Source of the DNA: a virus
Reading direction: 5' to 3' (one strand)
UHGV virus genome: UHGV-1430452
DNA length: 64,000 nt
A program made the translations under genes and the position numbers. The notes under the pieces are model-generated. The model did not search any database. It was not told where the DNA came from and was given only the letters and a program-made list of their open reading frames with translations. Positions 37,906 to 60,523 of this stretch are shown here, in pieces (position 1 is the first letter of the stretch; each line of letters starts with the position of its first letter).

Positions 37906-38982
37906 TCACCCCCATAATTTAGTTGTAAATACAGCTTTCTCTGTAACTGGACATCCAGGCTCACATTTGATAGATTGACTAACAACTTTGGCTTTTATGT
38001 TACTTATTCCAGCTCGTTTATAGTTAAGACGTACACAATCATTTAACCGTACAGGACAATACGCGTGAGTATATGTCACCGTATATTCAAGGCAGGACAC
38101 TTCACGGAGTAATTGCTCTGCATATTTTTGAATCTGTGATTCGGTCGGTATACCTGACAAGCTAGGATTAGTCACTCGATGTAAAATCTCTCGACCGCGA
38201 TTGATAGTAGAAGTTGGACTATTTTCGTCGTCATTAACTGCCCTACCGTAATAAATATCGTTAGCGTCAGAGTATACTACCTCAACAACATTCGGTATTC
38301 CGTACAGATCATGATTTACTGTTATCTCAGGATACAAGATAGAACTATTATTATCATCATAGGTATGAACAGGTTGCAAAGAGGCCGTATCCTGATCGGG
38401 AGCGAAAAGAATACGACCTAATTCGTCTAAACTAAGTTTATATTTTGCATTTGATATCAAATCCGAAGTAAATGTTATCCAAGTATCATCCGTGTTTGCT
38501 ACAAAATCGTTATATAATTCAGTCTCATTGTCTGCTTTTATAACTGGTGCTCTTACGTTGTCACGACATATCTGATAGGCCATTTTCATGATGTTCTCGC
38601 CTTTTAATATGGAATATCCAAGAGGTGGTGGATTCTCCTTTAACTCAATCAGTGGTGTGTAAGCGTCAAGAGTGTTGTCTTGTTTCTTACCGTCGAATGA
38701 TGAGGATGGGGTTTGAACTAAGTAAGTGCCTAGAGGATGTTTCTCAGTTAATCCATTTTGAATCGTAATGAGATAAACCCTCACATAGCACTCACCGATA
38801 GTTTCCGTAATATCTAATGTAGCTGATCCAAGTGTTTCAGCCCCTGAGTCTCTGGAAATAGAACACGATTTCACGGTATCTATTCGTTTCATATCTTTCC
38901 ATGTGCCTGGATCGACTATATAGTATTCAAATGTCTGTTCCATCGACTTAGTCCAATCTGGCATATCAGATACCTCCTTCAA
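37906..38982 (-). CDS. tail/baseplate component
   Basis: 358 aa directly after the distal-tail-like gene. Confidence 0.4.
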   Translation of the reverse strand: MKEVSDMPDWTKSMEQTFEYYIVDPGTWKDMKRIDTVKSCSISRDSGAETLGSATLDITETIGECYVRVYLITIQNGLTEKHPLGTYLVQTPSSSFDGKKQDNTLDAYTPLIELKENPPPLGYSILKGENIMKMAYQICRDNVRAPVIKADNETELYNDFVANTDDTWITFTSDLISNAKYKLSLDELGRILFAPDQDTASLQPVHTYDDNNSSILYPEITVNHDLYGIPNVVEVVYSDANDIYYGRAVNDDENSPTSTINRGREILHRVTNPSLSGIPTESQIQKYAEQLLREVSCLEYTVTYTHAYCPVRLNDCVRLNYKRAGISNIKAKVVSQSIKCEPGCPVTEKAVFTTKLWG

Positions 38983-41545
38983 CTCTTGTTATGTCTAGAG
39001 TAACCGGAATAGTGACATCGGAATGTTTCTGATTAAAAGATACAGTGATGTTTGCCCAATAGCCGCTTCCGGACGGTTCCCTAACATACACATCACCCAT
39101 CCATACGGATAAACGCCGTAATGCATAAAGAGTCTCTTTGTCTTCCTTAGGAATAACCATATTCCAAGTTGCAGAAGCGCCAACATGAGTGCCATAATAA
39201 CTAACCGGATACTTTCTTCCGATATAATTTACGAGTGTACTATCCGGTTTGTTATTGTCTGATACATCAATGTTGTAAGGGATTTTCAGCATCGAACCTA
39301 CCCATGGAGGAGTTTCGAGTTCTTCGTCTTCAGTTGTGTTAAAATTGGTCCATTCATCGTCCCACTGAATTATTACGGAATTGCCTCCTACTGGATACCC
39401 AGGTGGATCATAGTAACTAACAGAACCTGTACTTTTCGATGTGGCGACAATTCTATATCGCGCGTAATCTAAAGCTGGGTGTGGATCAGTTACGTATGAT
39501 TCATCTAAAGGAGATAGACCGGTAGCTAGCTCGGTAAATGTTCCATCAAACTCTTTCCTATAAACCGATAGCTCAACATCGGCCACAGCTTCCGACATTT
39601 CGTTCAAACAATATGGACTTATGTATGCTGTGTATGTTTCTTCGTCAATTCCTATTTCTGCATCCGGTTCATATGTGAATTCAGTCCATGATACATCGAA
39701 TTCTAATTCCGCTTCTGACGTAAGACCGGAATCCATAGAAGCAGTGCATTTAACTGTATAGCTGATGGCATTTTCGAGATCTATACTATGTGCAGAGATC
39801 TCCAATAACAACTGCTCTTTAGTGTCAAAGTACTGAGAATATAATGCTTCTCCTGCGTTTATTATTTTCTCATTGCCTATTTCATCAACTGTTGTGTAAA
39901 CTTCATTCGATGTTATTTCAACATGATATCCAATTGGCATCTGAGTGTTAGGACCAGTTTCACACTTAAGATAAATAGGAAACGAATTTACTGTAGTGAT
40001 AATATTATTTTGATTATCAGTCAAATTCATGGACAATGTGGCCGGAGCATAAACGTTAACTGTTCTCTGTATCGACCAATCGCCATACTGTTTAGTTACA
40101 CCAGCAGTTCTAACTCGCCACTTTATAACAGTGCCTTCTTTGTATTGGGTAGTATCCACAGAATAGAAACTGGTTCTATCTTTATCTTCTTCGACATTGG
40201 TATTTTCTATAGTGTGGGTTATTTTTTCTTCATCATAATATATCTCTAATTCAGCAAACGTCTGACTAGAGCCGTCTTCCGCATTATGAACCCAATATAG
40301 AAGTAACTCTTCCCCAGTAATCGCGGTAGTTGTTGAAGACCATGTTGTAGGAGCTGATGGACTTTTACCAATAACTATGGATTTAATCGATGTCCATGAC
40401 GATTCTCCATTATCGTTTACAGCTCGTACTCTAAAGAAATATTCCTGTCCTGATTCCATCCCGGTTATCTGAGCATATTGGTAAGCAGTAGATGTCACGC
40501 TTTTAACCTCTCCAGGATTTTGATCGAAATACGATTGTTTTGTTGTATATTCGATAGTAAAGCTTGTAGCATTCTCTACTTTTTCCCATTTAAGCTGCAC
40601 AGACGTGTCCGACGTAGCCTTGATGAAAATTATTTCTTTAGGAGCTGCTGGTACTGTTCCTGCTGAATTCGAGTAATCAGACCATTCGCCATAGATTTTA
40701 TCGCTTCCGTATAGGTTCACTGCTCTACAACGAACTCTGTAGTCTGAACCTGGATTAATAGTAAAAGACGCCACAGCTCTACAGGTCTGAACCTTTACTG
40801 TCGACGTCTTAAACCGAGTTGCCCCACTATAAACTTCAAAAGCGATCTGGTCAGTTCTAGGATCATCAATGTTATCGATAGTTGCTGTTAATGTGTACTT
40901 ATCGATTTTTACACTTGGTGCATTAGGCTTAGCAGGAGGATTACCTGCAAAATTCAAGTATGCACTAGCTTTAGTGGCAGTCCAATAAGCAACGTCTTTA
41001 CCATTCACCTTATGCTTTTTAGCGACAGGTTTAACATATACCATGACACTTATCGCATTTGACGGGACGGTGTATGTAGATTGGTGTACTTTTTCTTGTG
41101 AATTACTTCCTACAAAAAATATTCCATCACCAGTGCTATAACGCCATTCAACTTGATAATAATCTACATAAGAGGTAGCTCTTGGTGCTGCGAAAAAAGA
41201 TACTGACCTGGTTCCATCACCGAAGTCAGTACCACTTCCATCTTTTATCAGATATCCGACATTTATAGCGGACTGAATATTATGAGTACCACTTTTATTC
41301 CTGCCTAGAACAGCTCTTGCTCCTTTAATCTGAGTAATTTTCCATGTCTCATTAAAAACCCAGGAGGAAATGCTAACACCGTTATACCATGTAGCACCAC
41401 TTTGAATTGTTACCCATTCGCCTACTCGATAGTTTCCAATTTGTTCTGCATATATTTTTGCCGGTTCTTTAAAGTCCCATGTAGCGTAATATGTACTATC
41501 TGTACCAGACTGAAGCGCTAATTTAAGATTGGTAACTGACGCCAT
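38966..41545 (-). CDS. tail tip protein with fibronectin-III-like domains (distal tail protein-like)
   Basis: 859 aa immediately after tape measure; FN3-like segments (SVQLKWEKV...YFFRVRAVNDNGESSW). Confidence 0.45.
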   Translation of the reverse strand: MASVTNLKLALQSGTDSTYYATWDFKEPAKIYAEQIGNYRVGEWVTIQSGATWYNGVSISSWVFNETWKITQIKGARAVLGRNKSGTHNIQSAINVGYLIKDGSGTDFGDGTRSVSFFAAPRATSYVDYYQVEWRYSTGDGIFFVGSNSQEKVHQSTYTVPSNAISVMVYVKPVAKKHKVNGKDVAYWTATKASAYLNFAGNPPAKPNAPSVKIDKYTLTATIDNIDDPRTDQIAFEVYSGATRFKTSTVKVQTCRAVASFTINPGSDYRVRCRAVNLYGSDKIYGEWSDYSNSAGTVPAAPKEIIFIKATSDTSVQLKWEKVENATSFTIEYTTKQSYFDQNPGEVKSVTSTAYQYAQITGMESGQEYFFRVRAVNDNGESSWTSIKSIVIGKSPSAPTTWSSTTTAITGEELLLYWVHNAEDGSSQTFAELEIYYDEEKITHTIENTNVEEDKDRTSFYSVDTTQYKEGTVIKWRVRTAGVTKQYGDWSIQRTVNVYAPATLSMNLTDNQNNIITTVNSFPIYLKCETGPNTQMPIGYHVEITSNEVYTTVDEIGNEKIINAGEALYSQYFDTKEQLLLEISAHSIDLENAISYTVKCTASMDSGLTSEAELEFDVSWTEFTYEPDAEIGIDEETYTAYISPYCLNEMSEAVADVELSVYRKEFDGTFTELATGLSPLDESYVTDPHPALDYARYRIVATSKSTGSVSYYDPPGYPVGGNSVIIQWDDEWTNFNTTEDEELETPPWVGSMLKIPYNIDVSDNNKPDSTLVNYIGRKYPVSYYGTHVGASATWNMVIPKEDKETLYALRRLSVWMGDVYVREPSGSGYWANITVSFNQKHSDVTIPVTLDITRVEGGI

Positions 41546-41549
41546 TAGC

Positions 41550-44500
41550 TTATATCCTCCTTTCTATCACGGCTGCTCTTACAATTTCTTTAACAGCTTC
41601 TGTAATATTGCTTCCATCATCATAAGTAAGACCGTTAATGTTATATGAAACACCACCAACATTACCTAAGTCTTTACGAAGTCTGTTTATTGCTGAAACA
41701 ACATCATCCATAGATCCATTTTGAATTCTTTCACCCATCATAGAATTTATGGTGTTTAGTCTTGACATTACTCCCAATGTAGGAGTTCCATTCAACATGC
41801 CGTTAATTGCACTAGCTCCAGATTTAATATCAGACAAATCAAGGACTGGTCTTATTGTCGGCTGAGTGTTGATATCTCCGTCAAGAAGACTCGAAATTCT
41901 CGACATTGCTGTTTGAGTACTGTTAACAGCGTTATCGGACATTCTAGAAATAGATTGTTTCACTAATCCTCCGAACATACCGATACCCTTAGCAAATCCA
42001 ATAGGAACATATGAACCTATTTTCATGAACACCCTTGAAGGTGAATGAATAGCAAGATTAGCCCTAGCTGCTGCCGATGCTGCCGCTGCCATTGAAGCTG
42101 CTGCATTTGCCGCCGACCAAATGTTCGCTTGAATACCTGCTACAAATCCGCTAGCTACATAAGATCCAGAACTATAAAAGCTTGAATAATATCCTCTAGT
42201 AGAAGATACTGCTGAAGACAATATCGACGTTGTTGTGTTCACAACACTTGAAGCTCTACTTCGCATACCGTTTACGAATTGTGTCATTAAAGCAACGCCA
42301 TTAGTTCCAAATACGGATCTTTTACTGCTAATAGCTTTAAGCATCGAGTTGATAATATTGGTAGCTGTTGATGTTACCAATGCTTGTTTTGATTTCAAAC
42401 CATTAGAGAAAGATGTAATTAAGTTCGATCCAATGTTCGACATCTTAGACGTTGAACCACTAAATGATTTAGTAATACTATTCATAGAAGTTTGACCCAA
42501 AGTAGATACAGCAGTTTTAAACGATGCTACGCCGCTTGTGTTAAGTCCGGCCAAACTACTAATAAAATTCTTAATCTTAGTAGCCGCTGTTATAGAGCTA
42601 GATATTGATCCGACATTTATACCTGCAACAGAATCAGAGTAACTTTTTAAAGTACTTCCGATAGTTCCTATCTTAAAGTTTGAAACTCCACTAGAATCCA
42701 AACTTGATAGTCCCTGAATAAAAGTCTTTAATCTATTTGCCGCAGTAACAGAAGATGTAACTTTACCAGAGTCCACATTTTCAACCGACTTAGAGTAGCT
42801 CTTCAAAGTAGTTCCAATAGATCCTATTTTGAAGTTACTAACACCACTACTATCCAATCCCGTAAGACTTGATACAAAATTTCTAAGTCTATTTGCTGAT
42901 GATATGGATGATGAGACTATACCCGGGTCCATATCTTTAACGGAGTTTCCGTAGTCCTGCATAGCCTTACCTATGGAATTAATCTTGAAGTTTTCAATAC
43001 CGCTTGTATCAAGACCCACCAGACTAGCTATTAAACTCTTAAGTCTTAAAGCTACTGAGACTGCTGTGTTTACTTTAGCGATATCGATATCGGCTACAGA
43101 TTCTCCGAACTTACCTATAGCCTGTCCAATATTAACCAAATGACCGTCTCCGGCTCCAACACCTGCAAAGCTACTAACACCACTTGCATCGAGATCGGCT
43201 AAAGCGGTAATCAGGTTTTTAATCCTATAAGCGGCTGTTATGGCGGTGTTTATACCATCAGAGTTTATGTTTGCAGCGTCTGTTGAGAATGTAGTCATGG
43301 CCGAGCTGAATTTTTCGACGTATTTTGAGAATTCCTCAAGATTCATCTTACCGTCAAACCAGCCTTCTTCTGGAAGGGCTTCTTGAAGAGCTATAATAGC
43401 GCTACCTGCATTCGTTACGGATGTTACGACTGCTTCCGATATACCGTCCTCTCCCATTCCGGTTTTAAGTTTGCCCATAGCTGTAGCAAATTGACCTATG
43501 TTTTCGCCAAAAGTTCCTAAGTCATCTTTTCCGGTAAACCAGTCGATTACTCCTCCCATATTCTCAAGAGAAGATTGTAATCCAGCAAGTTTAGTAGCCG
43601 CATTTATAATAGAAGTAATTGAATCATCATCTATTTTTGTATCTCCTAAATCGGCAAAAGCAGTTTTCATCGATCCCATAAAGCTAGCGACACTAGACCC
43701 AAAAGTCCCTAAGTCGTCCCTTCCAGTGAACCAGTCAACCACTCCTCCTATATTTTCAAGCGATGACTGCAAGCCTGATAATTTAGTAGCTGCGTCGATG
43801 ATTATGCCGATTGCTTCGGTATTTATTTTGACTCCGTCTAAGCTTGAAAATGCTTTTGTCATAGATCCTATAAATAGACCTATATTTACACCAAATGTGC
43901 CGAGGTCGTCTCTACCTTTAAACCAGCTTATTACTCCACCTATTGGTTCGAGTGCTGACTGCAATCCTGCTAATTTAGTTGATCCATCGATAATGGTAGT
44001 CAAAGCTTCAGAATTAAATTCAACACCATCAAGACTCTGAAAAGCAGTTTTCATAGAGAATATAAATTGAGCTACGTTTGTTCCAAAAGTTCCAAGATCA
44101 TCTCTACCTTTAAACCAACTTATTACTCCGCCTATAGGTTCCAATGACGATTGTAAATTAGCTAGAATAGTAGTAGCACTTATTATTGCGGTTAATCCTT
44201 CTGTGTTTAAAGTAATTCCTTCTAGATCAGAGAACGCAACTTTCATGGAAGATATGAATTCTCCTACACTTTCTCCAAATGTGCCGAGGTCGTCTCTACC
44301 TTTAAACCAGCTTATTACTCCGCCTATTGGTTCAAGGCTAGATTGAAGTTTACTCAGTTCAGCAGCTCCAGTAATGATCGATGTTAAAGCTTCCGTATTG
44401 AAGGATACTCCGTCAAGACCTAGAAAAGCATTCTTCATTGAGAATATAAATTGACCGACGTTAGTTCCGAAAGTCGCGAGGTCATCCCTGCCAGAGAACC

Positions 44501-47500
44501 AATCCATAACACCGCCTATAGGCTCCAATGACGATTGTAATTCGCTAAGTTTCGTTGCTACATTTATCACAGCGCCCATTGCCGCCTCGTCTATTGTGAT
44601 TCCAGCAGAAGCTTGCGATATCGCTTTCATAGCATTGAAGAACGCAACACCATCGGTCTCAAACTTCTCCATAGAAGTACCACCGAGAGTGAATATGTCA
44701 GCGATAGAAGTACCAACTGTTGTAAATCCTATCTCTGCCATAGCACTCATTAAATCGGACACGCCATCGAAAGATCCTGATTTAATACCACTAGCATTTT
44801 CGCTTGCTATAGCTAGTTTGTCCATGAAATCAGCAATATTTTGACCTATTTCCGGTAAACTTCCGGTAATACCTTCTCCGATTCCTCCTATGAATGCTCC
44901 GATTCCTTTGCCGATTGCGTTTCCTATTTTTCCTAATAATCCACCGCCAGCTTCAACAAGGGACGAAAAACCTGGAATTTTAGATAACCCACCGATTGCT
45001 GCCAGAAGTACTGCTATCTCAGCTATTACAGCACCAACGGCTAATACTCCGGTCATTGCTGGGCCGGCTAAAGCTCCAGCTCCGGCGAATACTTTCATCA
45101 ATATTCCGATTACTCCGAATGCACCTATGCCTTTTAGCATAGTATCCATATCTAAATTGCCTATCGAATCGACGATACCTTTGACAACTTGTCCGACAAA
45201 ATTCATTATTGCCGATATTAATTCTGGAGTATGCTCGGCAAGACTATTAATAACTCCGATTATAAAACCGAGAAGTGAATCGACAATCTGTGGTGCATAC
45301 TGTTCTAATGCGTCTAAAACGCCTAAGAGCAGTTTCAGAAAACTTTCAGCCAATTGAGGTGCATATTCTCCTATAACTTTTGCGATTTCGACGATACCTC
45401 GACCTATTACTTCAGCAATTTGTGGAATCAATCCTAAAATACCGGTGATTATAACTGTTATTGATGCGACAAGCGCTGTGGCACCAGCAGTTCCAGCAGT
45501 AGCAAGAGCTGTGAATCCAGCTGATAGAGCAAGTATACCAACGCCAATTCCAGCTATAGCTACAGCAAATATAGCCATCGCAGCGGATAAACCAAGTATT
45601 GCCGGAGTGAGTGGACTCAGAAGAGCTCCAGCTACTCCTATTACTACAAAGGCTCCAGCAAGAGTTACGAGACCTTTTACTATGCTCTCCCAACTCATAG
45701 ATCCTAATGATTTCAATACAGGTGTTAAAATTGCTAATCCAGCAGCTGCAACAACTAATGCGGCAGACCCCTTAAGAGATCCACTCATGGCTTTTAATCC
45801 AATAGATAGCTCGACCAAAGCTATTCCAAGTACAACGAGTCCTTTTCCTATACTCTCCCAGCTCATCGATCCTAATGATTTTAAGACTGGAGTTAATATA
45901 GCAAGTGCTGACGCCATCAAAAGCATTTGACCGCCGAACTTAGCGATAGATCCACTACCCTTGCTCATAATTTTAGAAGCTAACACCAGCATTGTAACAA
46001 TACCTAATATTCCAGCTCCACCTTTAGCTAATTCGTTCCAACTCATAGAACCCAAACTCTTACCAACAGCAGCCAAAATGCCAACCGCAGCTGACATGAT
46101 AAGCATCTGTCCAGCAAATTTGGTTATAGACTTACTTTCAGTATTCATGAGTTTGGCAGCACCAACTAATATAGCGACTATTCCTAATATTCCGGCCCCA
46201 CCTTTGGCTAATTCTTCCCAACTCATTGAACTGAGAATTTTAGCGACTCCAGATAACGCTGCTATTGCTGCTGATAATATAAGCATCTGTCCAGCAAATT
46301 TGGTTATAGACTTACTTTCGGTATTCATAAGTTTAGCAGCCGCGACGAGTATAGCTACCATTCCACCAATACCAACGAGGCCTTTTGCTACACCGTTCCA
46401 ATCAAGTCCAGCTATAATTTTCATAGCGCCTGCTAATATAAGAATAGCTGCTCCGAGTCCAATCATCTGAACAGTTCTAGCTATACCTGACAAACTTGAT
46501 ACTATACCAGATAAAGGTTTGACACTTTTGCTGTTTATTTTTTCAAGCACTGCTAATGCAGATATCAACTCTACAAACAAACCGCCTATTGCGCCTAAAG
46601 AACTTCCGAGTTTATCCTCGTCTATTCCAGATATGACAAAAAGAGCCGCTGCCAGTATTCCAATAGCACCCGCTATTTTTAGCAATGTTCCGGCTTTAAG
46701 ATTCTGTTGCCATGATTCCAAACTTCCCTTAACGCCATCAAGTATTTTTTTAACGTTATCTAAGAAACTTATTTTTTCGAATGGATCAGATAATCCTTTA
46801 ATAAAGTTTCTTATGGCTAGTAATATTCCAGCAAACAATCCGCTGTTTAATACTTCGAAAATATCGCCTTTACCAAAGGCATCGGCTATCATATTACCTA
46901 TATCGGAAAAAGCTTCTCCGATGGCCGCGCCAACCGACTTTATAGTGTTCCATAGACCGGAAAAGAAGCCAAGAAAACCTTGAAGTGTAGGAGAAATCTT
47001 AAAACTCTCAATAAGTGAGCGTCCAAACTCTGCTATTTTTGAAATCCCGTTGCTAAGAAATCCAACAATTTTATCAACTGCGTCGCCAAACAGATTTCCT
47101 TCTACTATGGAGTCTCTCACATTCGAGATAAAATCTCCAAAAGAACTCGTTGCATCCAGTATTCCTCCACCAAGTCCGGTGAAGTTTCCAATAATATCTA
47201 GAGCGCCTTTTCCAACAGCTTTAAAAGCCTCTATAACAATATCGATAGCGGAAAAGATTCCTTTAAATGTAGATTTTATTTTAGATGCAGCGCCTTCACT
47301 TACTTTTAAAGTATCAGTGAAAGCTTTGAATCTATCAATCATACTTACTACTTGGTCGACTGTAGTAGGTGGAAATATCTCTCTAAAAGCTTCTTTTATC
47401 GGTTTTATTATATCTCCAAGGAATTTGAATATATTTTTCAAACCCTCTATAATTTTTTCTCTACCGCCAAGCTCGGTTATTCCATCGATAAGACCATCTA

Positions 47501-49097
47501 TGTTGTCTTTTAATTTATTCGTAGATTCGTTTGCTTCATTTAGCGCTTTTAATGTAGCGTCATCAACGATACCTGTTATTTCTAAATCGTTAGCTTCCTG
47601 AAAAGCTTTAATAGCTGACTCTGTGGCACTTCCGAAAATTCCATCAGCACCAGAATCGCCAATATCATAGTTAAGGCTTTGTAATGCTTTTTGTACTTTT
47701 GTTACGTCGTCTCCTGTATTACCTTTCGATAAACCGGCTTCGACTCCACTTAAATCTACAAGTTCGCCTTTTAATCCGCTAACAGCTTCTTTTAAAATAT
47801 CAGAAGATATGGCACCAGATTGAAAAGCTTTTTCTAGAGAACCATATTTTTTTATGATCTCGTCCATATTAACGCCATGGTCCTCAGCAATCGATCTAAC
47901 TTTTTCCTCAAAAGTATCGGTTTCTACACCAGCTTCATTTATTTTTTTTACAAGCTTATCCCAGTTAGAAGACATCGCGCCTTCCAATAATTCGTTACGA
48001 GATTTCGCTGATGATTCAACCATCTTTCCAATGGTATCTGAAATTCCAGTGAACAATTCTTTGGAGTCTTCAAAATCACCGACAAGTATTCTCCAAGTTT
48101 GACCCCATCCAGATTGGAGAGATTCTTTTACCGTATCTATCAGCTGTGTGAATGTTTTTACTTTTGTAGCAGCGTCTTCAGCGTCCTTCGCTAAAGCCAT
48201 AATATCGTTTGCTTGAGATTCGCTATAACCTTGGGCAATAAGATCGGCCTTACTATATGCGCCAGACAATTGGTTAAGAGTTTCAGTTAATACCTCGGTC
48301 GTTAACCATTCACCTTTTGTTAGGCTTTCTCTAAAGCTGCCATATGTATCAATAGCTTGTTTAGCGCCTGTTCCCAAAAGTTCAGACGTTCTAACAAGTG
48401 CGTCCTGAAATACCTTACCACCCATACCGGCATTAACAACTGAGTTCCAGTCCATAAGACTAACTTTACCTGCCGCCAATGCCTGAGAAAGCTGATACAT
48501 CGCAGTAGATGCCTGTTGAGAAGTTGATCCAGAAACTGCGGCCAAGTTCGCAATACCTTTAATAGCATTAACTGAGGTATCAAGTTTTACACCAGCTGCT
48601 GTAAACGTACCGATATTACGAGTCATTTCCGTAAAATTGTAAATCGTCTTATCGGCATATGTATTTAGCTCATCTAAAGCCTTATTTACAATATCAACAT
48701 TAGTGCCTTCCTGCCTTGTATTGGATAGAATTGTCTGAATAGCACCAATCTGAGTTTCGTATTCTTGGAAACCGCTTTTAACCGGATCTATAGTTAATGC
48801 TGATATCATACGTTTACCAGTGTTAACAGCCTGGTTAGTGATGTTTGCTAAAGCAGTTACACCAGCGACCTGTAGTGCTGAAAATTTAGCCTGAACTGTC
48901 TCTATACCACTGCTCATTCCTGCAAAGCTAACACCTTTAGCAGCCTTACCGACATTCTCCAACCCTTTGGAGGCACCAGATAGATTTAACTTTTGTTTGA
49001 GCTTATCGAGAGTTGACATACTGGTTGCGACTCCGCTCTCAAACTGCTTATTGTCGAACCGCATCTCCAAGACTCTGTTGTCAATAGTCGTACTCAT
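41550..49097 (-). CDS. tape measure protein (2515 aa) with internal repeats and a peptidoglycan-binding domain
   Basis: N-terminal tape-measure domain (GFQEYETQIGAIQ...MYQLSQALAAGKVSLMDWNS); PG_binding_1-like segment DDVTKVQKALQSLNYDIGDSGADGIFGSATESAIKAFQ; repeated ISWFKGRDDLGTFG and TM-rich blocks. Confidence 0.85.
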   Translation of the reverse strand: MSTTIDNRVLEMRFDNKQFESGVATSMSTLDKLKQKLNLSGASKGLENVGKAAKGVSFAGMSSGIETVQAKFSALQVAGVTALANITNQAVNTGKRMISALTIDPVKSGFQEYETQIGAIQTILSNTRQEGTNVDIVNKALDELNTYADKTIYNFTEMTRNIGTFTAAGVKLDTSVNAIKGIANLAAVSGSTSQQASTAMYQLSQALAAGKVSLMDWNSVVNAGMGGKVFQDALVRTSELLGTGAKQAIDTYGSFRESLTKGEWLTTEVLTETLNQLSGAYSKADLIAQGYSESQANDIMALAKDAEDAATKVKTFTQLIDTVKESLQSGWGQTWRILVGDFEDSKELFTGISDTIGKMVESSAKSRNELLEGAMSSNWDKLVKKINEAGVETDTFEEKVRSIAEDHGVNMDEIIKKYGSLEKAFQSGAISSDILKEAVSGLKGELVDLSGVEAGLSKGNTGDDVTKVQKALQSLNYDIGDSGADGIFGSATESAIKAFQEANDLEITGIVDDATLKALNEANESTNKLKDNIDGLIDGITELGGREKIIEGLKNIFKFLGDIIKPIKEAFREIFPPTTVDQVVSMIDRFKAFTDTLKVSEGAASKIKSTFKGIFSAIDIVIEAFKAVGKGALDIIGNFTGLGGGILDATSSFGDFISNVRDSIVEGNLFGDAVDKIVGFLSNGISKIAEFGRSLIESFKISPTLQGFLGFFSGLWNTIKSVGAAIGEAFSDIGNMIADAFGKGDIFEVLNSGLFAGILLAIRNFIKGLSDPFEKISFLDNVKKILDGVKGSLESWQQNLKAGTLLKIAGAIGILAAALFVISGIDEDKLGSSLGAIGGLFVELISALAVLEKINSKSVKPLSGIVSSLSGIARTVQMIGLGAAILILAGAMKIIAGLDWNGVAKGLVGIGGMVAILVAAAKLMNTESKSITKFAGQMLILSAAIAALSGVAKILSSMSWEELAKGGAGILGIVAILVGAAKLMNTESKSITKFAGQMLIMSAAVGILAAVGKSLGSMSWNELAKGGAGILGIVTMLVLASKIMSKGSGSIAKFGGQMLLMASALAILTPVLKSLGSMSWESIGKGLVVLGIALVELSIGLKAMSGSLKGSAALVVAAAGLAILTPVLKSLGSMSWESIVKGLVTLAGAFVVIGVAGALLSPLTPAILGLSAAMAIFAVAIAGIGVGILALSAGFTALATAGTAGATALVASITVIITGILGLIPQIAEVIGRGIVEIAKVIGEYAPQLAESFLKLLLGVLDALEQYAPQIVDSLLGFIIGVINSLAEHTPELISAIMNFVGQVVKGIVDSIGNLDMDTMLKGIGAFGVIGILMKVFAGAGALAGPAMTGVLAVGAVIAEIAVLLAAIGGLSKIPGFSSLVEAGGGLLGKIGNAIGKGIGAFIGGIGEGITGSLPEIGQNIADFMDKLAIASENASGIKSGSFDGVSDLMSAMAEIGFTTVGTSIADIFTLGGTSMEKFETDGVAFFNAMKAISQASAGITIDEAAMGAVINVATKLSELQSSLEPIGGVMDWFSGRDDLATFGTNVGQFIFSMKNAFLGLDGVSFNTEALTSIITGAAELSKLQSSLEPIGGVISWFKGRDDLGTFGESVGEFISSMKVAFSDLEGITLNTEGLTAIISATTILANLQSSLEPIGGVISWFKGRDDLGTFGTNVAQFIFSMKTAFQSLDGVEFNSEALTTIIDGSTKLAGLQSALEPIGGVISWFKGRDDLGTFGVNIGLFIGSMTKAFSSLDGVKINTEAIGIIIDAATKLSGLQSSLENIGGVVDWFTGRDDLGTFGSSVASFMGSMKTAFADLGDTKIDDDSITSIINAATKLAGLQSSLENMGGVIDWFTGKDDLGTFGENIGQFATAMGKLKTGMGEDGISEAVVTSVTNAGSAIIALQEALPEEGWFDGKMNLEEFSKYVEKFSSAMTTFSTDAANINSDGINTAITAAYRIKNLITALADLDASGVSSFAGVGAGDGHLVNIGQAIGKFGESVADIDIAKVNTAVSVALRLKSLIASLVGLDTSGIENFKINSIGKAMQDYGNSVKDMDPGIVSSSISSANRLRNFVSSLTGLDSSGVSNFKIGSIGTTLKSYSKSVENVDSGKVTSSVTAANRLKTFIQGLSSLDSSGVSNFKIGTIGSTLKSYSDSVAGINVGSISSSITAATKIKNFISSLAGLNTSGVASFKTAVSTLGQTSMNSITKSFSGSTSKMSNIGSNLITSFSNGLKSKQALVTSTATNIINSMLKAISSKRSVFGTNGVALMTQFVNGMRSRASSVVNTTTSILSSAVSSTRGYYSSFYSSGSYVASGFVAGIQANIWSAANAAASMAAAASAAARANLAIHSPSRVFMKIGSYVPIGFAKGIGMFGGLVKQSISRMSDNAVNSTQTAMSRISSLLDGDINTQPTIRPVLDLSDIKSGASAINGMLNGTPTLGVMSRLNTINSMMGERIQNGSMDDVVSAINRLRKDLGNVGGVSYNINGLTYDDGSNITEAVKEIVRAAVIERRI
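43300..46400. repeat. in-frame tandem repeats inside the tape measure gene
   Basis: Recurrent protein blocks (PIGGVISWFKGRDDLGTFG x5-6; GILGIVAILVGAAKLMNTESKSITKFAGQMLI x2-3) and matching DNA periodicity; boundaries approximate. Confidence 0.5.
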
Positions 49098-49471
49098 ATC
49101 TTAGTAACCTCCCTCCAGGCCTCTTCTGCCATTTTGTCAAAAATAGGCTGAATCGCAGGATTGATATAATCTCTCCCTTGAACCCAGCCTCCAGTACCAG
49201 TCCCATGACCATATTGCAAAATAATAGCGATTGGTACACCTTTATTAATGTTAGAGTTTGTAAAAGTAATCTTTGCTGATCCGGATGTATTCTCAATTTC
49301 GTATCCCCACGATTTAGCAGTCAATCCAGATTCTACAGGAGTAGCAGACATAAGAGCAGCCACCCCTTCCCGACCATATTTGTCGAGTACGCTGAGCTTT
49401 GCATTCCCTTTAAGTTTCTCAAAATATCGAGTAACTTTAGAGAAGTCTCCCTTATGTCTGAAACTAATCAT
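49094..49471 (-). CDS. tail-module hypothetical protein
   Basis: 125 aa, 4-nt overlap with the tape measure start. Confidence 0.35.
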   Translation of the reverse strand: MISFRHKGDFSKVTRYFEKLKGNAKLSVLDKYGREGVAALMSATPVESGLTAKSWGYEIENTSGSAKITFTNSNINKGVPIAIILQYGHGTGTGGWVQGRDYINPAIQPIFDKMAEEAWREVTKI

Positions 49472-49486: not shown

Positions 49487-51205
49487 TTACAGTAGCTCGT
49501 TAACTCGATCCTGAATTTTCTGAATCATGTTGTGATCGTATCCAGCTTTTGCGAGGGCATTAATTCGTGCATCTCCATTACCGTATTTTCCGGCAATGAC
49601 ATCACGGGCTACATTATCAATCACTATCTGATTTACTTTCTTCTGCACAGTGTCTGGATTATAACCAGCTTTCTTGAGAGCAGACACACGAGCATCACCA
49701 TTACCCCATTTTCCAGCTAAAACCTCTTTAGCTACTTCATCGATAGATTTAGTAGGTTTTGCAGGAGCTTTAAGTAGTTCATTCACTTTCTTCTGTACAG
49801 TGTCTGGATTATAACCAGCTTTCTTGAGAGCAGACACACGAGCATCACCATTACCCCATTTTCCAGCTAAAACCTCTTTAGCTACTTCATCGATAGATTT
49901 AGTAGGTTTTGCAGGAGCTTTAAGTAGTTCATTCACTTTCTTCTGTACAGTGTCTGGATTATAACCAGCTTTCTTGAGAGCAGACACACGAGCATCACCA
50001 TTACCCCATTTACCGGCGATTACTTCTTTAGCAATTTCATCGATAGATTTGGTCGGTTTTGGCGTAGATGTAGGTTTAGATGTTGGTGCTGGTGTGGAAG
50101 AACTTTTCGCATATTTTGGTCTAGCAAAACCACGAATCATACCCCAGCCAACCGGAATGGTACGTCTTGCTACTGCTTCTCCTCTGTTACCTTCAATCGC
50201 TGTGATTTGTCCGTTTGAAACAGATTCCACATACCCGATATGATCAGAATATCCGTCGTTTGGCTGAGTCTTATCATCCCAGTTATAAACAATTACATCA
50301 CCAGGTTTCGGAGTAATGGTGCCGTCCTCGACCCAAATGCCTTTCTGCTTAAAAATCTTAATATGTTCCTCACAACCAACTTCTGTACCGATGAGATCGA
50401 CTGCTCCGGATTTGATAGCTGCTGCTGATACTGTACAATCACACCATTCATCATTAGGTTTAATAGCGTATCCGCGAGCCAAAGGTTTGTGAGAATTATA
50501 GATGTTAAGAATCTCAATATATTTACCGTTAGCTTCAGAATAACCGAGCCAACTTCTCATAACATTAAGAACGTCCTGTGCTGTTACACCCAATTCCGTA
50601 TCCTCCTGTTTTCCGTAAAAATAGTTCATGTCGACTTTACCTTTAATACCGCCTACAGTTCCGGAACTCGTATACTGATGAACCAAACAACCGTAATCTG
50701 CTTTTCCGTTATAATCAGCGAGCCAGAATTTGTACTGTTTAATCAGATCATGATTATACCAATTTCGATAGTAGTCGATATTTGCGTAGATTCCAGCTTT
50801 GTATCCCTGAGATTCTACGTACTCACAAAAGATTCTTGTAAAGTTATTACATTCATTTTTACCAAGTCTCACACCTTTTGCAGCTGCTTTCTTGACTGTG
50901 TCATATTCGAAATCTGCGAAGATGATTGTGTTTTTATCAAGACCAGCTTTTCTAACAACATCAACACAGAATTTTGCTTCGTCAAGTGCGCCCTGTTCGT
51001 TTAAGGCATAAATAAAATGGTAAGTTCCTATAATCGGAATCTTGTTGTTTTTACACCCATTGACATACTCATAGAATTTTGAATCTACTGTCTTCCTGTA
51101 AGAAGATCTAAGAATCGCGAACTCTATTCCGGAGGACTTGACTTTAGAAAAATCTACATCTCCCTGCCAATAGCTGATATCAATTCCTTTCTTCACAATC
51201 ATCAT
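49487..51205 (-). CDS. peptidoglycan hydrolase: GH25 muramidase + CHAP-like domain + four CW_7 cell-wall-binding repeats
   Basis: GIDISYWQG GH25 N-terminus; Cys/His segment DEWCDCTVSAA...SDHIGYV...IEGN; 4x IDE(V/I)AKEV(L/I)AGKWGNGDAR(V/I)SALKKAGYNPDTVQKKVN. Confidence 0.8.
   Translation of the reverse strand: MMIVKKGIDISYWQGDVDFSKVKSSGIEFAILRSSYRKTVDSKFYEYVNGCKNNKIPIIGTYHFIYALNEQGALDEAKFCVDVVRKAGLDKNTIIFADFEYDTVKKAAAKGVRLGKNECNNFTRIFCEYVESQGYKAGIYANIDYYRNWYNHDLIKQYKFWLADYNGKADYGCLVHQYTSSGTVGGIKGKVDMNYFYGKQEDTELGVTAQDVLNVMRSWLGYSEANGKYIEILNIYNSHKPLARGYAIKPNDEWCDCTVSAAAIKSGAVDLIGTEVGCEEHIKIFKQKGIWVEDGTITPKPGDVIVYNWDDKTQPNDGYSDHIGYVESVSNGQITAIEGNRGEAVARRTIPVGWGMIRGFARPKYAKSSSTPAPTSKPTSTPKPTKSIDEIAKEVIAGKWGNGDARVSALKKAGYNPDTVQKKVNELLKAPAKPTKSIDEVAKEVLAGKWGNGDARVSALKKAGYNPDTVQKKVNELLKAPAKPTKSIDEVAKEVLAGKWGNGDARVSALKKAGYNPDTVQKKVNQIVIDNVARDVIAGKYGNGDARINALAKAGYDHNMIQKIQDRVNELL
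49530..50130. repeat. 150-bp tandem DNA repeat (about 4 copies, two identical) encoding the CW_7 repeats
   Basis: Copies starting 49681 and 49831 are identical over ~150 bp; flanking copies diverged. Confidence 0.8.
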
Positions 51206-51762
51206 CCTTTCGAATTGAATTTCTTTCTTCGAGCTGCATTCATTTCAGCATAACGACTCATTAATTCTCGCTTACTTGTCTGTTTAGGTGGCTCATTGTG
51301 AGCACTACATACCCTTATCAAAGTAATAAGTCTATTAAGATGCCATTTTTCACACTCAAATGGAATATTGTTTGCAATCATCCAATAATATATAAGCTCT
51401 GACGTTATGATCTCTCGATTTTTCTTTCCAGATCTTCTGTCATTGATAGTAGTTGCTGTCATTGGAGCATAAATATAGTCAGTTATTTGCTTTAAGTTAT
51501 CTTCACTTAACCGACCATACACACTTGGATCAACATTCTTATTGAGTGTCATACACCTTATGTAATCTATTGTTTCTTCAATGGTTTTCTCTTTATTTGT
51601 ATAAAAAGGTTTACACCATTTTGATTCCCATTTTGAAAGAGAGATGAGTGAATGTTCTAATTGTAGTGTCTGCTCTTTCTGAGCTGGCACGGGTATAAAC
51701 ACTTGATTTCCTTCATCCCATAATTCGTCAGCTTCTCTAGCAGGTACTATAATCTGAATCAT
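51202..51762 (-). CDS. tail-module hypothetical protein
   Basis: 186 aa; GGAGGG RBS. Confidence 0.4.
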   Translation of the reverse strand: MIQIIVPAREADELWDEGNQVFIPVPAQKEQTLQLEHSLISLSKWESKWCKPFYTNKEKTIEETIDYIRCMTLNKNVDPSVYGRLSEDNLKQITDYIYAPMTATTINDRRSGKKNREIITSELIYYWMIANNIPFECEKWHLNRLITLIRVCSAHNEPPKQTSKRELMSRYAEMNAARRKKFNSKG

Positions 51763-51791
51763 TACTCATCCCTCCATTGTGTTCGAATTTA

Positions 51792-52205
51792 TTAAGCTCC
51801 TGGAAGCAGATTCTTTGAATTAGCTTCCTGTGCAACATCAGCCGGAACGATGCCGTTAATAAATGCCGCTGCTGCTTCTGCGTCTGTAGCAAGTTCCATG
51901 AAGAGTGTGGAATAAGCTTCTGTCTGTGAAAACTTTCTTGACAGTGGTCTTCCGTCCTCATCAAGTTTCATGAAACCTTTACCATCCGGAGCCTTTTCTC
52001 CATATGCTTTAAGAATAAGATCTTTAAAGATAGCTACGATTGTCGGAGTATCCTGTGCTGCCACGACTTTCTCAATCATCTCAGCGAATCCACCAACTGT
52101 AGATAATTCCATCTCCATAATTTCTGCTTTAGAAAGGTTGAAGTAATATGTATCTTCTCTTTCTACTCCGTTGTAATCTGTGTATTTAATAGCTTTTTTT
52201 AACAT
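51792..52205 (-). CDS. putative tail assembly chaperone
   Basis: 137 aa acidic protein directly after the major tail protein gene. Confidence 0.4.
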   Translation of the reverse strand: MLKKAIKYTDYNGVEREDTYYFNLSKAEIMEMELSTVGGFAEMIEKVVAAQDTPTIVAIFKDLILKAYGEKAPDGKGFMKLDEDGRPLSRKFSQTEAYSTLFMELATDAEAAAAFINGIVPADVAQEANSKNLLPGA

Positions 52206-52301: not shown

Positions 52302-52967
52302 TTACGCACCTGTCGTAGTTTTCATCATAGTAGCAACCTCATCCGGGAGTGGAAGTCTTGCTTCTGTATCCTCGTCACCGTAAAGAACTGCCTCCAGTGC
52401 TGCCAGTTTAGTTGGATCAGCTGTGGTAGAGTCGATTATGAGATGAGATGTAGGTTTGAAATTAGCTACAGATACCGGAGTAGTACTACACTCCCAGGAC
52501 ATAGTAGCCGCTTCCGGACTATCATTTACAGTCGCACGAGATACTTCGGAAGGAGCTGCAAGAGCACCGTATACCAGATGCAGTTTGTAACCATGTGATT
52601 CGCCCTCTGTATCATTACCAATAAGGCTTCGATAAGATAAACCGAAATTTTTACGTTTCTGCTGTCCAATCTTAACGCCGGTTGCAATTTCTCCTTCACC
52701 GTTACATTCTGCGAATTCATCGGGATACATATAAGCTTCGATTGTGAAACCAAATTCCTCAGCGGACATAAGTGTCACATACTTAATGTTATCTGCATAG
52801 AGCGGTGTCGGTTCTGCTCCAGATGGTGATTCTGTTACAGCTGTAAGACCATTCCATGCTGCTCCTTTCGGATAGTTTCCATCAGTTCCCATTGGATAAA
52901 TTACGCCATGATCGACGCCAGTTTCAAACAAACGTTCGCCTGTTGCGTCCCATACAAGTTTAGCCAT
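52302..52967 (-). CDS. major tail protein
   Basis: 221 aa, position between head-tail genes and chaperone, followed by a strong terminator. Confidence 0.5.
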   Translation of the reverse strand: MAKLVWDATGERLFETGVDHGVIYPMGTDGNYPKGAAWNGLTAVTESPSGAEPTPLYADNIKYVTLMSAEEFGFTIEAYMYPDEFAECNGEGEIATGVKIGQQKRKNFGLSYRSLIGNDTEGESHGYKLHLVYGALAAPSEVSRATVNDSPEAATMSWECSTTPVSVANFKPTSHLIIDSTTADPTKLAALEAVLYGDEDTEARLPLPDEVATMMKTTTGA

Positions 52968-53621: not shown

Positions 53622-55559
53622 TTAGGCAGTTTCTTTCACGAATTCAAGAGCTACTGCGGAATACGGTTTAACAAGTGTACCGGAGCAACGTGTCTCCATA
53701 AGATACTTCTGCTTGTTGTAATCGATATCGAAATCATCGAAGAAGTTGATTTCTCCACCCTTATCTGTACCTACGTTGTAATCTTTAAGATTTACATAGA
53801 TACCAGCAAGCTCATATGTCTTATTTTCATCGTCTGTTCTTGTAAGACCTTCCATTACCGGAACCGGAACGATTTCTCTTACGCGAAGAGATGCTGCAAG
53901 TTTCTGTACGCTATCATAGATAACACGTCCGTTTGTATCTTCAATGAGCAAGCAATCTGTAAGCATATCCTCAGACATGAACATATCAGGGTTGCCAGAT
54001 CCTTTATAATTCTTTCTGGATTTGATGCAAGCTTTGATGAATGCCTTAGCTTTCTCTTCAGCAGTAGCGGAATCGCTTACATTGATAGCTGCTTTAACTG
54101 TGAAAAGATCTTCCATCTTCCAGATAGGTCTGATGCAGTCCTCATTGATTTTATCGTTAGCCTCTTCAACCGGATCTCTTCCATCACCGATAAGGAATGC
54201 GCGAGCAAGTTCCTCATCAAGCATCATACGAACTTCTCTCTTCAGCCATGGAAGAATATCGAAATCTGTAATATCAAGCATGTCATCGCGATCTAATGCC
54301 TGTTTCTTGTATACAGTTGTTGGATTTGTTACACGTTTGAGAAGCTTAAATACTTCTTCAATTTTAAGTTTGCCTTTCTGGTATCCCTTTGCTCTAGCCT
54401 GTGCTGCTGTGATGTCAGCAAAGATAGTTTTGATACGGGAGAACGGTGTGTGATGTACTCCGCCAAGTACTTTTGATACCCAATCGTCATTACGTTTGAT
54501 AAATTCCGGTTCATTGTTAAGATTCTTTGCATCCGGGAATAAGATGTCAATGTCTGTGATACCATGAGCAAGCACTGCCTCTTTAAGAGAACCTGAGCGT
54601 TTCGCATCTTCGAAAATCGCAGTCATCTCGGAGTGTGTAAGCACATCATCTGCCATAGGGGTTTCATTGTCGAATACGTTGTGTTTCATATTTTTGTTTC
54701 CTCCTTCATTTTCATCATCTTCTTCGGTTTCAACACCAGCATCTTCTAATGCCTGTCCGATCATAGCGTACACAACAGTTTTCTGTTTCTCAGAAAGAGT
54801 GTTGAATACATCAGCTACAGTTTCTTCTTTGTTTTCTCCCTTTGTTTCTTCCTCGGCATGTTTTACTTCTTCCTCAGAATGGGTTACTTCTTCTTTGTCT
54901 GGTTTATCATCGTTTTCTTCTTTGATACCAGCATCTTCTAATGCCTGTCCGATCATAGCGTACACAACAGTTTTCTGTTTTTCAGAAAGAGTGTTGAATA
55001 CATCAGCTACAGTTTCGTCCTTATTTTCTTCGGCATTATGTTTTTTGGTTTCTTCTGCCATTTTTTCTTCTCCTTTCTCAGAAGTATCTGCGTGGAACAA
55101 TGACTCCACATTTTCGATATATTCGCCTGAGCTGATATATCCCTCTTCATAAGAATCTTCGCCATGCATCATGACAGACTCTATTACTGCGCCTGGATTA
55201 GCACCAGCTAAAACCAAACTAAGCTCACGAATGACTCCGTGAACTACATTACTTCCCTGCTGTTTAAGTCTGTTGGCATATATGGAAAATCTATTCACAT
55301 CACCATGCTGAACCAGCAATTTAGCATTCTGCCCTGATTCCGTATCGTTAAATGTGCAATATGCATACACACCTTCGTCCCTGTTTTCCAGCAAGGCATG
55401 ACCGAGCACTTCATCTACGCTATTATGCTGATGATTCCAAACTAACGGTACAGTTTCACCATCGCACTCTTTGAATGCATCTTTCATGATGACTCTACCG
55501 TCCGCACACAGCATGTCAGCTTTAGTAGCCCAGCCAGAACAATCATATGACTTAGCCAT
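53622..55559 (-). CDS. prohead protease - scaffold-like linker - major capsid protein fusion
   Basis: N-terminal prohead-protease-like region (VPLVWNHQ...FSIYA...ELSLVLAGANPGAVI); acidic linker with duplicated ETVADVFNTLSEKQKTVVYAMIGQALEDAG; ~350-aa C-terminal capsid-like domain. Confidence 0.6.
   Translation of the reverse strand: MAKSYDCSGWATKADMLCADGRVIMKDAFKECDGETVPLVWNHQHNSVDEVLGHALLENRDEGVYAYCTFNDTESGQNAKLLVQHGDVNRFSIYANRLKQQGSNVVHGVIRELSLVLAGANPGAVIESVMMHGEDSYEEGYISSGEYIENVESLFHADTSEKGEEKMAEETKKHNAEENKDETVADVFNTLSEKQKTVVYAMIGQALEDAGIKEENDDKPDKEEVTHSEEEVKHAEEETKGENKEETVADVFNTLSEKQKTVVYAMIGQALEDAGVETEEDDENEGGNKNMKHNVFDNETPMADDVLTHSEMTAIFEDAKRSGSLKEAVLAHGITDIDILFPDAKNLNNEPEFIKRNDDWVSKVLGGVHHTPFSRIKTIFADITAAQARAKGYQKGKLKIEEVFKLLKRVTNPTTVYKKQALDRDDMLDITDFDILPWLKREVRMMLDEELARAFLIGDGRDPVEEANDKINEDCIRPIWKMEDLFTVKAAINVSDSATAEEKAKAFIKACIKSRKNYKGSGNPDMFMSEDMLTDCLLIEDTNGRVIYDSVQKLAASLRVREIVPVPVMEGLTRTDDENKTYELAGIYVNLKDYNVGTDKGGEINFFDDFDIDYNKQKYLMETRCSGTLVKPYSAVALEFVKETA
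54736..55018. repeat. ~90-bp duplicated module inside the capsid fusion gene
   Basis: Near-identical DNA at 54736-54825 and 54929-55018. Confidence 0.7.
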
Positions 55560-55908: not shown

Positions 55909-57180
55909 TCATAGGTCCGAAATTGGTGTGTCACCTAATGAGGGTTCTTCCTCTGGTGGAATATCTTCTTCACTTATATCCGGAGTTGGATTCAATCCAG
56001 TTCCTGTTTGATTGATGTTGCTATTTACTAACTGGTCAGCTTTTGGATCATCTGATGGTTTCATACCAATAATCTGTCGAACCTCATTAGCTGTAAGTAT
56101 TTCATTCTGCGTAAACACTCCAGCGATTTCAGCCAGTTTACTAAGAGGAACGAGTCTAAACGAATCTCTGAAGAATTTGATAGTCTGATTCTGAGATCGT
56201 GCTGTCTTTGTTAAAAACTTGCGTTTCATCTCATCGACGATTGCTGCGACAATTGGCTCAATAGTCCTTGAATAGTAGTTCAGCATTTCTTCTTCGCTCG
56301 CTGATCCATCGAGTATCGCCTGTGTGATTCCAAGCTGGCTGTATAGTTGAGCAGTTAGATATTCCACTTGTTTCATCAGGTTATTGTCGAGAGGTCTGTT
56401 TAACTGCACTATCTTTTCAGTTCCATCAACATAGCCAATACCGTAAGTGGAACCGCTTAGCTGTTGCTCCAGGTCCGCACGTCTTTCATTAGCTAGTTTT
56501 CGCCGAGCTTCAGATTTAATAGAATATGGTAGCTGAATAATCATGTCCAATTTTCCACTACTGATACGTTCGTCCATTCTATCGAGAAGGGCAAGTTTTC
56601 GCGTAAGACGCTGCATGGTAGAATTATGCTCATTGATAACCGCATATAAAGGATTCTCAACTATAGCTACCATTTTCTTTTCAAGCTTAATGTCTTCTCG
56701 TTCTCCTGTTCGTTCATTGTAAACTCTAACTTTCACATGGTTTGGATACCATTCAAGAATTTTACCAGTTCGCATGGAAAGTATTTTATATGATTCAGTT
56801 TGAGATGGATCTATATCTGTATCAACAGGAACTATTGCTACACAGCCCTCGTCAAGCATAGACATAACGATATCTTGTGTGAATGCTCTACCAGTCTGAT
56901 CGATATTCGCTTCAAGATTCAGACATTTATTAAGAGTCGAATCAATCTTTTCTATAAATCTACCGTTACTGTCTATACGACAGTGATTAATATTTATAGA
57001 AGAGACATCCAAAGCTATTCGATTAAAAATAGCAGTAACAACAGATCGCTCATTACCCCTAGTGAATCTCGGCCTATCCGGTCTATTTGAATATCCTGGA
57101 CCAATGTTACGAGAGTCATATGTCGGATCTCGGTTCATGAAAGCATTCCACGAATGCCGAAGTCTATCTATAAAATCCAT
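55909..57180 (-). CDS. portal protein
   Basis: 423 aa, between terminase and capsid genes; acidic C-terminus. Confidence 0.55.
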   Translation of the reverse strand: MDFIDRLRHSWNAFMNRDPTYDSRNIGPGYSNRPDRPRFTRGNERSVVTAIFNRIALDVSSININHCRIDSNGRFIEKIDSTLNKCLNLEANIDQTGRAFTQDIVMSMLDEGCVAIVPVDTDIDPSQTESYKILSMRTGKILEWYPNHVKVRVYNERTGEREDIKLEKKMVAIVENPLYAVINEHNSTMQRLTRKLALLDRMDERISSGKLDMIIQLPYSIKSEARRKLANERRADLEQQLSGSTYGIGYVDGTEKIVQLNRPLDNNLMKQVEYLTAQLYSQLGITQAILDGSASEEEMLNYYSRTIEPIVAAIVDEMKRKFLTKTARSQNQTIKFFRDSFRLVPLSKLAEIAGVFTQNEILTANEVRQIIGMKPSDDPKADQLVNSNINQTGTGLNPTPDISEEDIPPEEEPSLGDTPISDL

Positions 57181-60494: not shown

Positions 60495-60523
60495 TTTGAA
60501 TTTTCACCTCTTATCTCAAATAG

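Follow-up and report, generated by a model that had tools for sequence, protein, structure and literature searches.

The locus at 41550..49097 on the minus strand of the UHGV virus genome UHGV-1430452 raises the question of what a single reading frame of 7548 nt encodes, and of whether its product is as unusual as it looks. The window is the whole stretch of 64,000 nt that was analysed. A first-pass annotation, made from the letters of the window, had described the product as an exceptionally long tape measure protein with several tandem repeat families and a peptidoglycan-binding segment, and had proposed its repeats as a hotspot for length variation. We consider it very probable that this is a genuine tail length tape measure gene of a temperate siphophage with gut Clostridia-like hosts, and that it belongs to a family of 2000-3200-aa proteins with a shared order of parts. 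The ways in which the protein would set tail length, be ejected and be anchored are putative. It is an unexceptional member of a large, uncharacterised family of giant tape measures, and as such contributes little that is new. The points likely to interest a specialist are an exchangeable wall-binding slot and the series of proteins built from a 64-aa unit.

The reading frame and its domain layout

The gene is one intact, ATG-initiated frame of 2515 codons plus a stop, and a GGAGG ribosome-binding site precedes its start. The ATG and the stop of the preceding 125-aa gene overlap as ATGA, which suggests translational coupling of the two genes. Its identification as a tape measure was borne out by three profile matches, the first two above curated cutoffs. 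Pfam TMP_3 (PF20155) matched aa 137-283 (E 2.9e-13; 50.4 bits, cutoff 41), NCBIfam TIGR02675 (tape_meas_nterm) matched aa 182-226 (35.6 bits against 21.35), and the 2515-aa protein matched PHROG phrog_4372, "tail length tape measure protein", with 1255 bits. The first two matches define a conserved N-terminal core (48249..48689, minus strand, as are all parts of the gene given below). Within the C-terminal ~250 residues, aa 2251-2451 matched three tape measure or tail PHROGs (phrog_1204, phrog_1686 and phrog_5493). The conserved C-terminal region (aa ~2251-2515; 41553..42347) is delimited by these matches, which are common to other tape measure families, and by identity to L001 and L002, contigs carrying uncultured relatives, which rises to 55-60% over aa 2401-2515. 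The gene lies in a minus-strand siphophage structural module, after the genes of the major tail protein and a chaperone and before the tail and fibre genes, and its position is kept in syntenic relatives.

Between the two conserved ends, a hydrophobic region (aa 804-1368; 44994..46688) holds about 16 helix-length hydrophobic segments on the Kyte-Doolittle scale (19-residue window, at least 1.6). The product has the character expected of a tape measure, a long and mostly helical protein with internal hydrophobic segments, the modelled stretches being mostly helical with low confidence outside the slot. Across the family the parts follow one order: the N-terminal tape measure core, the variable slot, a 60-aa hairpin array (family A), the B array, the C array and the conserved C-terminal region. 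Six antisense frames of 154-183 aa inside the gene had no PHROG match and were regarded as spurious, and an Rfam scan of the gene found no RNA family.

Repeat arrays, length and mosaicism

A self-comparison of the whole protein by BLASTP gave the identity match alone, and the repeats were found by searching 80-aa fragments against the whole protein. This recovered three in-frame tandem families, in agreement with the first-pass annotation; the E-values between units ranged from 1e-8 down to 1e-40, well outside what chance would give. Family A (aa ~809-1169; 45591..46673), delimited by self-BLAST, register and unit profile, has a period of 60 aa and 5-6 copies (self-BLAST E to 7e-34). Every unit consists of two hydrophobic helices, and with flanking segments the array makes up the roughly 16 hydrophobic segments of this region. 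Its unit profile found 1-7 copies in 25 of 28 IMG/VR relatives. Family B comprises six good copies with a period of 64 aa (aa 1486-1869; 43491..44642; self-BLAST E to 1.7e-40), followed by a degenerate seventh unit (aa 1870-1933; 43299-43490). The alignment of its units, which were also recovered by a unit profile and in part by Tandem Repeats Finder, has 21 invariant columns, including the motif LQSxLE..GGV..WF.G.DDL.TFG. For two B units, an AlphaFold model based on five aligned rows, all of them copies from the gene itself, was mostly helical, with low confidence (pLDDT 49.8). Family C (aa ~1942-2206; 42480..43274), delimited by self-BLAST, motif register and HMM counts, has five copies with a period of 52 aa and the motif L(D/S/N)xSG(V/I)..F (self-BLAST E to 6e-25). 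HMM counts gave five C units in the query, four in L001, L004 and L006, and two to three in L002.

The copies are diverged at the DNA level. Pairwise nucleotide identity was 53-74% among B units and 43-68% among the four recognisable A units, and the longest exact in-register runs were 47 nt (B2/B4) and 41 nt (A1/A2), most pairs sharing less than 20 nt. A check with Tandem Repeats Finder, which the annotation had suggested, was only partly informative. Because of this divergence it reported a single array, at 43891-44606 (period 384 nt, equal to two B units, 74% matches), and the A and C arrays were not seen. The duplications are most likely old, since no exact run exceeds 47 nt and nucleotide identity among the B copies reaches only 53-74%.

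The product is very long at 2515 aa, and that part of the earlier claim stands; its exceptional character does not. A B-unit profile searched against 1.84 billion representative proteins matched 934 proteins when the threshold was E <= 0.001, and 466 when it was E <= 1e-10. Among the best 150 matches, the 121 full-length proteins measured 1923-3236 aa with a median of 2418, 32% of them had at least 2515 aa, and longer tape measures have been published. The 28 IMG/VR relatives ranged from 1426 to 2581 aa as extracted (a few were cut by contig ends), two of them reaching 2581 aa. Given this range, the query is long by general phage standards, yet typical of its own family. B copies numbered 3-15 per relative in the library search and 2-13 in a stricter local count. 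In the 121 full-length proteins, length rose with B copy number (Spearman 0.35, p 1e-4), with a slope of 38 aa per copy. About 900 clusters of giant tape measures are recognisable by the 64-aa B unit, present in 2-15 copies, and these form a natural series in which unit number can be set against tail length.

Global alignment of the query with L001 showed differences of whole units, +64 aa (one B unit) around aa 1750-1850 and +52 aa (one C unit) around aa 2001-2100. In the ENA contigs L050 and L051, whose tape measure genes have only about 1840-1930 codons, a slot with PG_binding_1 is present and most of the B and C arrays are absent. Identity to L001 and L002 alternated along the protein. Residues 1-200 were 72-83% identical to L002 and 66-92% to L001, and residues 100-300 were 49-72% and 87-92% identical, respectively. 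Over residues 600-1300 identity was 68-82% to L002 against 21-42% to L001, and over residues 1400-1700 it was 23-30% against 65-71%. On this alignment the query gene is an intragenic mosaic of L001-like and L002-like segments, which shows that blocks are swapped within tape measure genes by recombination.

Whether the arrays also change length today is a separate matter. It could be that the repeats are a present-day hotspot, with frequent copy-number change between isolates by slippage or homologous recombination and rapid polymorphism of tail length. The exact whole-unit differences from L001 would fit this, as would the span of 2 to 15 B copies, the two unit pairs that retain exact runs of 41 and 47 nt, and the 384-nt period, which suggests that the latest event duplicated a two-unit block; repeats have also been proposed as facilitators of tape measure length change (PMC5099701, PMC13585406). 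However, the divergence of the copies points to old duplications kept by selection, and with so few long exact runs frequent slippage or recombination is not expected. A megablast search of the gene against 50,697 phage records gave no match, so no near-identical isolate was available for a comparison of copy number, and the closest relatives are 40-70% identical. We therefore consider a present-day hotspot unlikely. What survives of the annotated hotspot is variation by whole units on an evolutionary scale; frequent change is unlikely in copies so diverged. As read from these comparisons, length in the family is shaped by gain and loss of whole units, gain and loss of the slot, and recombination between relatives, and a high rate in the query's lineage is unsupported.

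The slot for wall-binding modules and the proposed ejection of the protein

The peptidoglycan-binding segment of the annotation proved to be a match to all 57 positions of the Pfam PG_binding_1 model (PF01471), at aa 461-519 (47541..47717; E 1.5e-18; 67.2 bits, cutoff 23). When aa 341-620 were modelled by AlphaFold with the help of 30 metagenomic relatives, this stretch received a pLDDT of 81-90. Foldseek superposed it on two solved structures, with TM 0.88 and rmsd 1.0 A for the N-domain of SleB (6tci) and with rmsd 0.5 A over 66 columns for a peptidoglycan-binding protein of C. difficile (5tv7), and also matched it to CtpB, SleC and phiKZ gp144. In the model, aa 461-519 has the three-helix bundle fold of solved PG_binding_1 domains, and peptidoglycan binding is predicted. 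A helical subdomain (aa ~376-440; pLDDT 70-80) precedes the module in the slot. No catalytic peptidoglycan hydrolase domain was found in the tape measure by Pfam, NCBIfam and PHROG scans, all endolysin-, SleB- and hydrolase-type matches being confined to aa 440-534, that is, to the binding module.

The module is real, but it is not special to the query: it is one of several alternative wall-binding modules that occupy the same slot in the family. The slot (aa ~379-540; 47478..47963), defined by alignment of relatives and by a census of 122 full-length proteins including the query, is flanked by the conserved anchors RNELLEG (aa ~367-373) and LGGRE (aa ~541-545). Its length is bimodal in the census: about 41 proteins have a slot of 7-33 aa, and most others one of 114-245 aa. 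PG_binding_1 was found in the slot of 22 of the 122 proteins, the query included, CW_7 in 44 and LysM in one, and about 14 had a helical insert of 67-157 aa without a recognised module. The modules lie at corresponding positions in the different proteins. Pfam placed CW_7 at aa 408-446, 465-502 and 413-450 of relatives, LysM at aa 452-494 of another, and PG_binding_1 at aa 492-550 in P0032, compared with aa 461-519 in the query. In the alignment the slot is absent from L002, L003, L034, L009, L015 and L019, and other modules fill it in other relatives. Precomputed Pfam labels of the 120 nearest N-terminal relatives likewise gave PG_binding_1 (30), CW_7 (19) and LysM (1). A PG_binding_3 label on some relatives was a weak overlapping match to the same stretch and was not counted as a separate module.

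These module families are those used as binding domains of endolysins. In the GenBank phage collection nearly all matches of the module were endolysins, and the whole slot was matched inside a tape measure gene in a few uncultured phages only. Recent exchange of PG_binding_1 between lysin and tape measure was rejected: the module of the L050 lysin is 35-45% identical to either tape measure module, against 61% between the tape measures of the query and L050. The slot module was therefore inherited within tape measure genes and not freshly copied from the lysin next door. A slot that interchangeably holds PG_binding_1, CW_7, LysM or nothing fits an accessory matched to the host wall rather than an essential part. 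In the searchable literature, within a limited search of incomplete coverage, we found no description of PG_binding_1 or CW_7 inside a tape measure, of the 64-aa unit series, of module shuffling in the slot or of the intragenic mosaic.

By analogy with lambda, TP901-1 and T5, copies of the protein would fill the lumen of the tail tube during assembly and set tail length. Known tape measure biology suggests that the protein would be ejected first at infection, with its C-terminus leading, and that the hydrophobic array would contribute to passage through the cytoplasmic membrane after ejection. The PG_binding_1 module lies 280-340 residues N-terminal of the first hydrophobic helix. Given this order of domains, a hydrophobic array lodged in the membrane would leave the module within the thick Gram-positive wall, where it could serve as an anchor for the ejected protein. 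In TP901-1, tail length scales with tape measure length and the hydrophobic regions are required for infection (PMC5099701), and in TM4, cell-wall-active motifs inside the tape measure aid infection (PMC1796659). We suggest, tentatively, that the slot is an exchangeable, host-matched wall anchor that fixes the ejected tape measure while the hairpin array forms a conduit for DNA, and that its content helps to set which hosts or growth states can be infected. If this were true, the tape measure would be a second, post-adsorption determinant of specificity in this phage family. The slot also offers a clean and testable example of how binding modules are shuffled into a virion protein, and it could help in engineering how efficiently Gram-positive hosts are infected.

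The tail is estimated at about 350-420 nm. A calibration of 0.15 nm per residue predicts 377 nm, the slope and intercept of TP901-1 about 350-365 nm (PMC5099701), and the ratio of Katyusha about 420 nm (PMC4919401). Very long tails, probably of this predicted length, would then be common in an abundant, uncultured Clostridia-type group of gut phages, the structural module of which is related to that of the actinophage clusters AM and AU.

Several observations weigh against this account of a measuring, ejected and wall-anchored protein. The slope of length on B copy number is 38 rather than 64 aa per copy, which means that other segments vary too. A folded three-helix PG_binding_1 bundle in each copy, or three such folded modules, may not fit the lumen of an ordinary siphophage tail, and the module may then be unfolded or placed otherwise in the virion. 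The hydrophobic regions of TP901-1 are not proven to span membranes, and could bind chaperones instead (PMC5099701). The slot is empty in about a third of the relatives, and the basic function can thus do without the module. Lastly, no canonical overlapping G/GT chaperone frameshift was visible upstream of the gene: no long overlapping frame was seen, and the 186-aa frame is cut off from the TAC_17 chaperone by in-frame stops, slippery sites not having been searched systematically.

Another reading would be that much of the protein does not measure at all. The slot, the hydrophobic region or the B and C arrays would be compact or lie outside the tube, the protein would be mainly an ejected, pore-forming and wall-anchoring effector, and the tail would be much shorter than 1.5 A per residue implies. 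The two compact folded subdomains of the slot model and the only moderate correlation of length with B copies could be read in this way, and some tape measures do hold non-measuring domains, such as the RNA polymerase part of P23-45 (PMC10770324). However, deletions of repeats and hydrophobic regions in TP901-1 shortened the tail in proportion (PMC5099701), the slot accounts for only about 165 of the 2515 residues, and outside PG_binding_1 both aa 341-620 and the two B units (the latter at low confidence) were predicted to be mostly helical. We regard a largely non-measuring protein as rather improbable.

An assembly artefact that expanded or collapsed the repeats, which the annotation had named as a possible refutation, or a decaying pseudogene, is hardly credible, given a frame intact over 7548 nt, copies too diverged for short-read collapse or expansion, and a recurrence of the same architecture, at similar lengths, among over 100 independent cluster representatives and four IMG/VR contigs (78-98 kb or 13 kb). 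The metagenomic relatives L050 and L051 do carry a broken tape measure gene, but the breaks are at different sites and are not conserved. In L050 the break is a single in-frame TGA at a conserved Gly (L050 11837), and in L051 a frameshift near the LGGRE anchor (L051 ~7160-7218). A true two-gene arrangement or recoding was rejected on the same grounds, and the interruptions are likely to be sequencing errors or decay.

Gene neighbourhood and known systems

All structural genes described here are on the minus strand. The large terminase subunit (58145-59878) is followed by the portal (55909-57180) and by a 645-aa fusion of head maturation protease and major capsid protein (53622-55559; phrog_3270, 746 bits). 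Two small connector genes separate the fusion from the 221-aa major tail protein (52302-52967; phrog_2645, E 3e-106). The 137-aa tail assembly chaperone follows (51792-52205; Pfam Phage_TAC_17, E 1.6e-37), and after it, within 51202-52205, a 186-aa gene that matches phrog_4338, which has no assigned function. Between terminase and portal, away from the tail module, lies a gene for a 198-aa collagen-like or tail-fibre-like protein (57195-57791). Upstream of the terminase, four consecutive genes (59922-63285; 190, 378, 352 and 181 aa) all match one set of PHROGs without assigned function (phrog_7502, 32444 and 7021) and share N-terminal similarity; they form an array of paralogues, the equivalents of which carry DUF7211 in relatives.

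Two extra genes separate the chaperone from the tape measure gene. Within the tail module, a 572-aa lysin gene (49487-51205) follows the chaperone genes and precedes the pair formed by the 125-aa gene and the tape measure gene; its product has GH25 (aa 8-187), CHAP (aa 254-340) and four CW_7 repeats. The content of this site varies: the gene is GH25-like in L002, CW_7-bearing in L003 and L041, Amidase_3 with PG_binding_1 in L050 and CHAP-like in L051, and the site is empty in L009. Downstream of the tail fibres the window showed no second lysin. The 125-aa gene (49094..49471), of the tail completion or HK97 gp10-like type (phrog_5, E 1e-13), lies directly upstream of the tape measure, where a gene of the neck or tail-completion type is not usually found. 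It adjoins the tape measure in all seven relatives compared, in which it is 56-81% identical, and L050 and L051 have a 125-aa gene at the corresponding position. The tape measure gene is followed directly by that of an 859-aa tail protein with fn3 (38966..41545; phrog_6977, minor tail protein), which is syntenic in relatives and is, by position alone, a putative distal tail protein. A 358-aa tail protein and further tail and fibre genes follow. This gene order is kept in the IMG/VR contigs L001-L004, L009 and L034, in a Lachnoclostridium metagenome-assembled genome (MAG; L041) and in L050 and L051. The neighbouring genes of L002 are nearest to those of the window (65-95% identity).

A 528-aa large serine recombinase (phrog_95; 24726-26312, plus strand) is the serine integrase of the window, and indicates that the phage is probably temperate. 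It is part of the only sizeable plus-strand block, at 24053-26312, over which both GC and AT skew are locally reversed. A scan of genome contigs found two distant prophage-like relatives, in Clostridia MAGs of Lachnoclostridium sp. UBA903 and Candidatus Colivivens, all other matches being to the PG_binding_1 segment only. With so few and distant prophage relatives, the assignment to a Clostridia-like host is tentative. Elsewhere in the window, a minus-strand gene at 5592-9818 encodes a fusion of primase and polymerase (1408 aa; phrog_4210 with 1871 bits), in which primase-type matches cover aa 119-428. In the only tRNA (15958-16031, minus strand; Rfam, 62 bits) the anticodon loop, CTTATA, is 6 nt long; ARAGORN reported this tRNA as tRNA-?(Stop|Ile), and it may be defective or an unconventional decoder.

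Among known systems, the tape measure of TP901-1, about 937 aa long, turned up no match in the searches run, and no direct comparison with the query was made. The two are alike in outline, TP901-1 having an N-terminal region, hydrophobic regions needed for infection, repeats whose deletion shortens the tail and an essential C-terminus, and they differ in that its repeats are aromatic units of 11 and 18 residues and its hydrophobic regions number two (PMC5099701). Unlike the query, it has not been reported with a cell-wall-binding module.

The tape measure Pb2 of phage T5 has an embedded muralytic module that is delivered to the wall at infection. The Tmp of TM4 likewise has a wall-directed module within the tape measure, which reaches the wall at infection (PMC1796659), as would that of the query. 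Both modules are catalytic or hydrolase-like, whereas the query has a binding module alone, and the Pfam, NCBIfam and PHROG scans place it outside the type with an embedded muralytic domain. Longer tape measures than that of the query are known from siphophages which it resembles in length and, by prediction, in its long tail. The Gordonia phages Katyusha and Benczkowski14 have tape measure genes of 9 kbp, equal to about 3000 aa, and tails of 500 nm (PMC4919401), and the Thermus phage P23-45 has a tape measure of 5002 aa (PMC10770324).

Closer likeness was found in actinophages. The tape measures of Arthrobacter clusters AM and AU, of Gordonia phages (Crocheter, Kenosha and Untouchable), of Streptomyces phages and of Bifidobacterium phages (BitterVaud1) share a homologous N-terminal core, 60-aa hairpin array and C-terminal region with the query. 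These phages also share its structural gene order, including the protease-capsid fusion, which has been noted as unusual in clusters AM and AU (PMC5513430). However, their tape measures are 1460-1700 aa long, lack the B and C arrays, have an empty slot (as in L015, the Crocheter contig) and are 32-38% identical to the query over about half its length; their hosts are Actinobacteria, while the window of the query has 33-42% GC. Nearest of all are tape measures from uncultured gut and other metagenomic phages (L001 and L004, 2581 aa; L002, 2371 aa; MT835495.1; and the 121 cluster representatives). None of these has been characterised, and they differ from the query in unit numbers and in the slot, which holds CW_7 in L001 and L004 and is empty in L002. 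They nevertheless possess the full architecture of the query, with the slot in the same place, and their neighbouring genes are 45-95% identical to those of the window.

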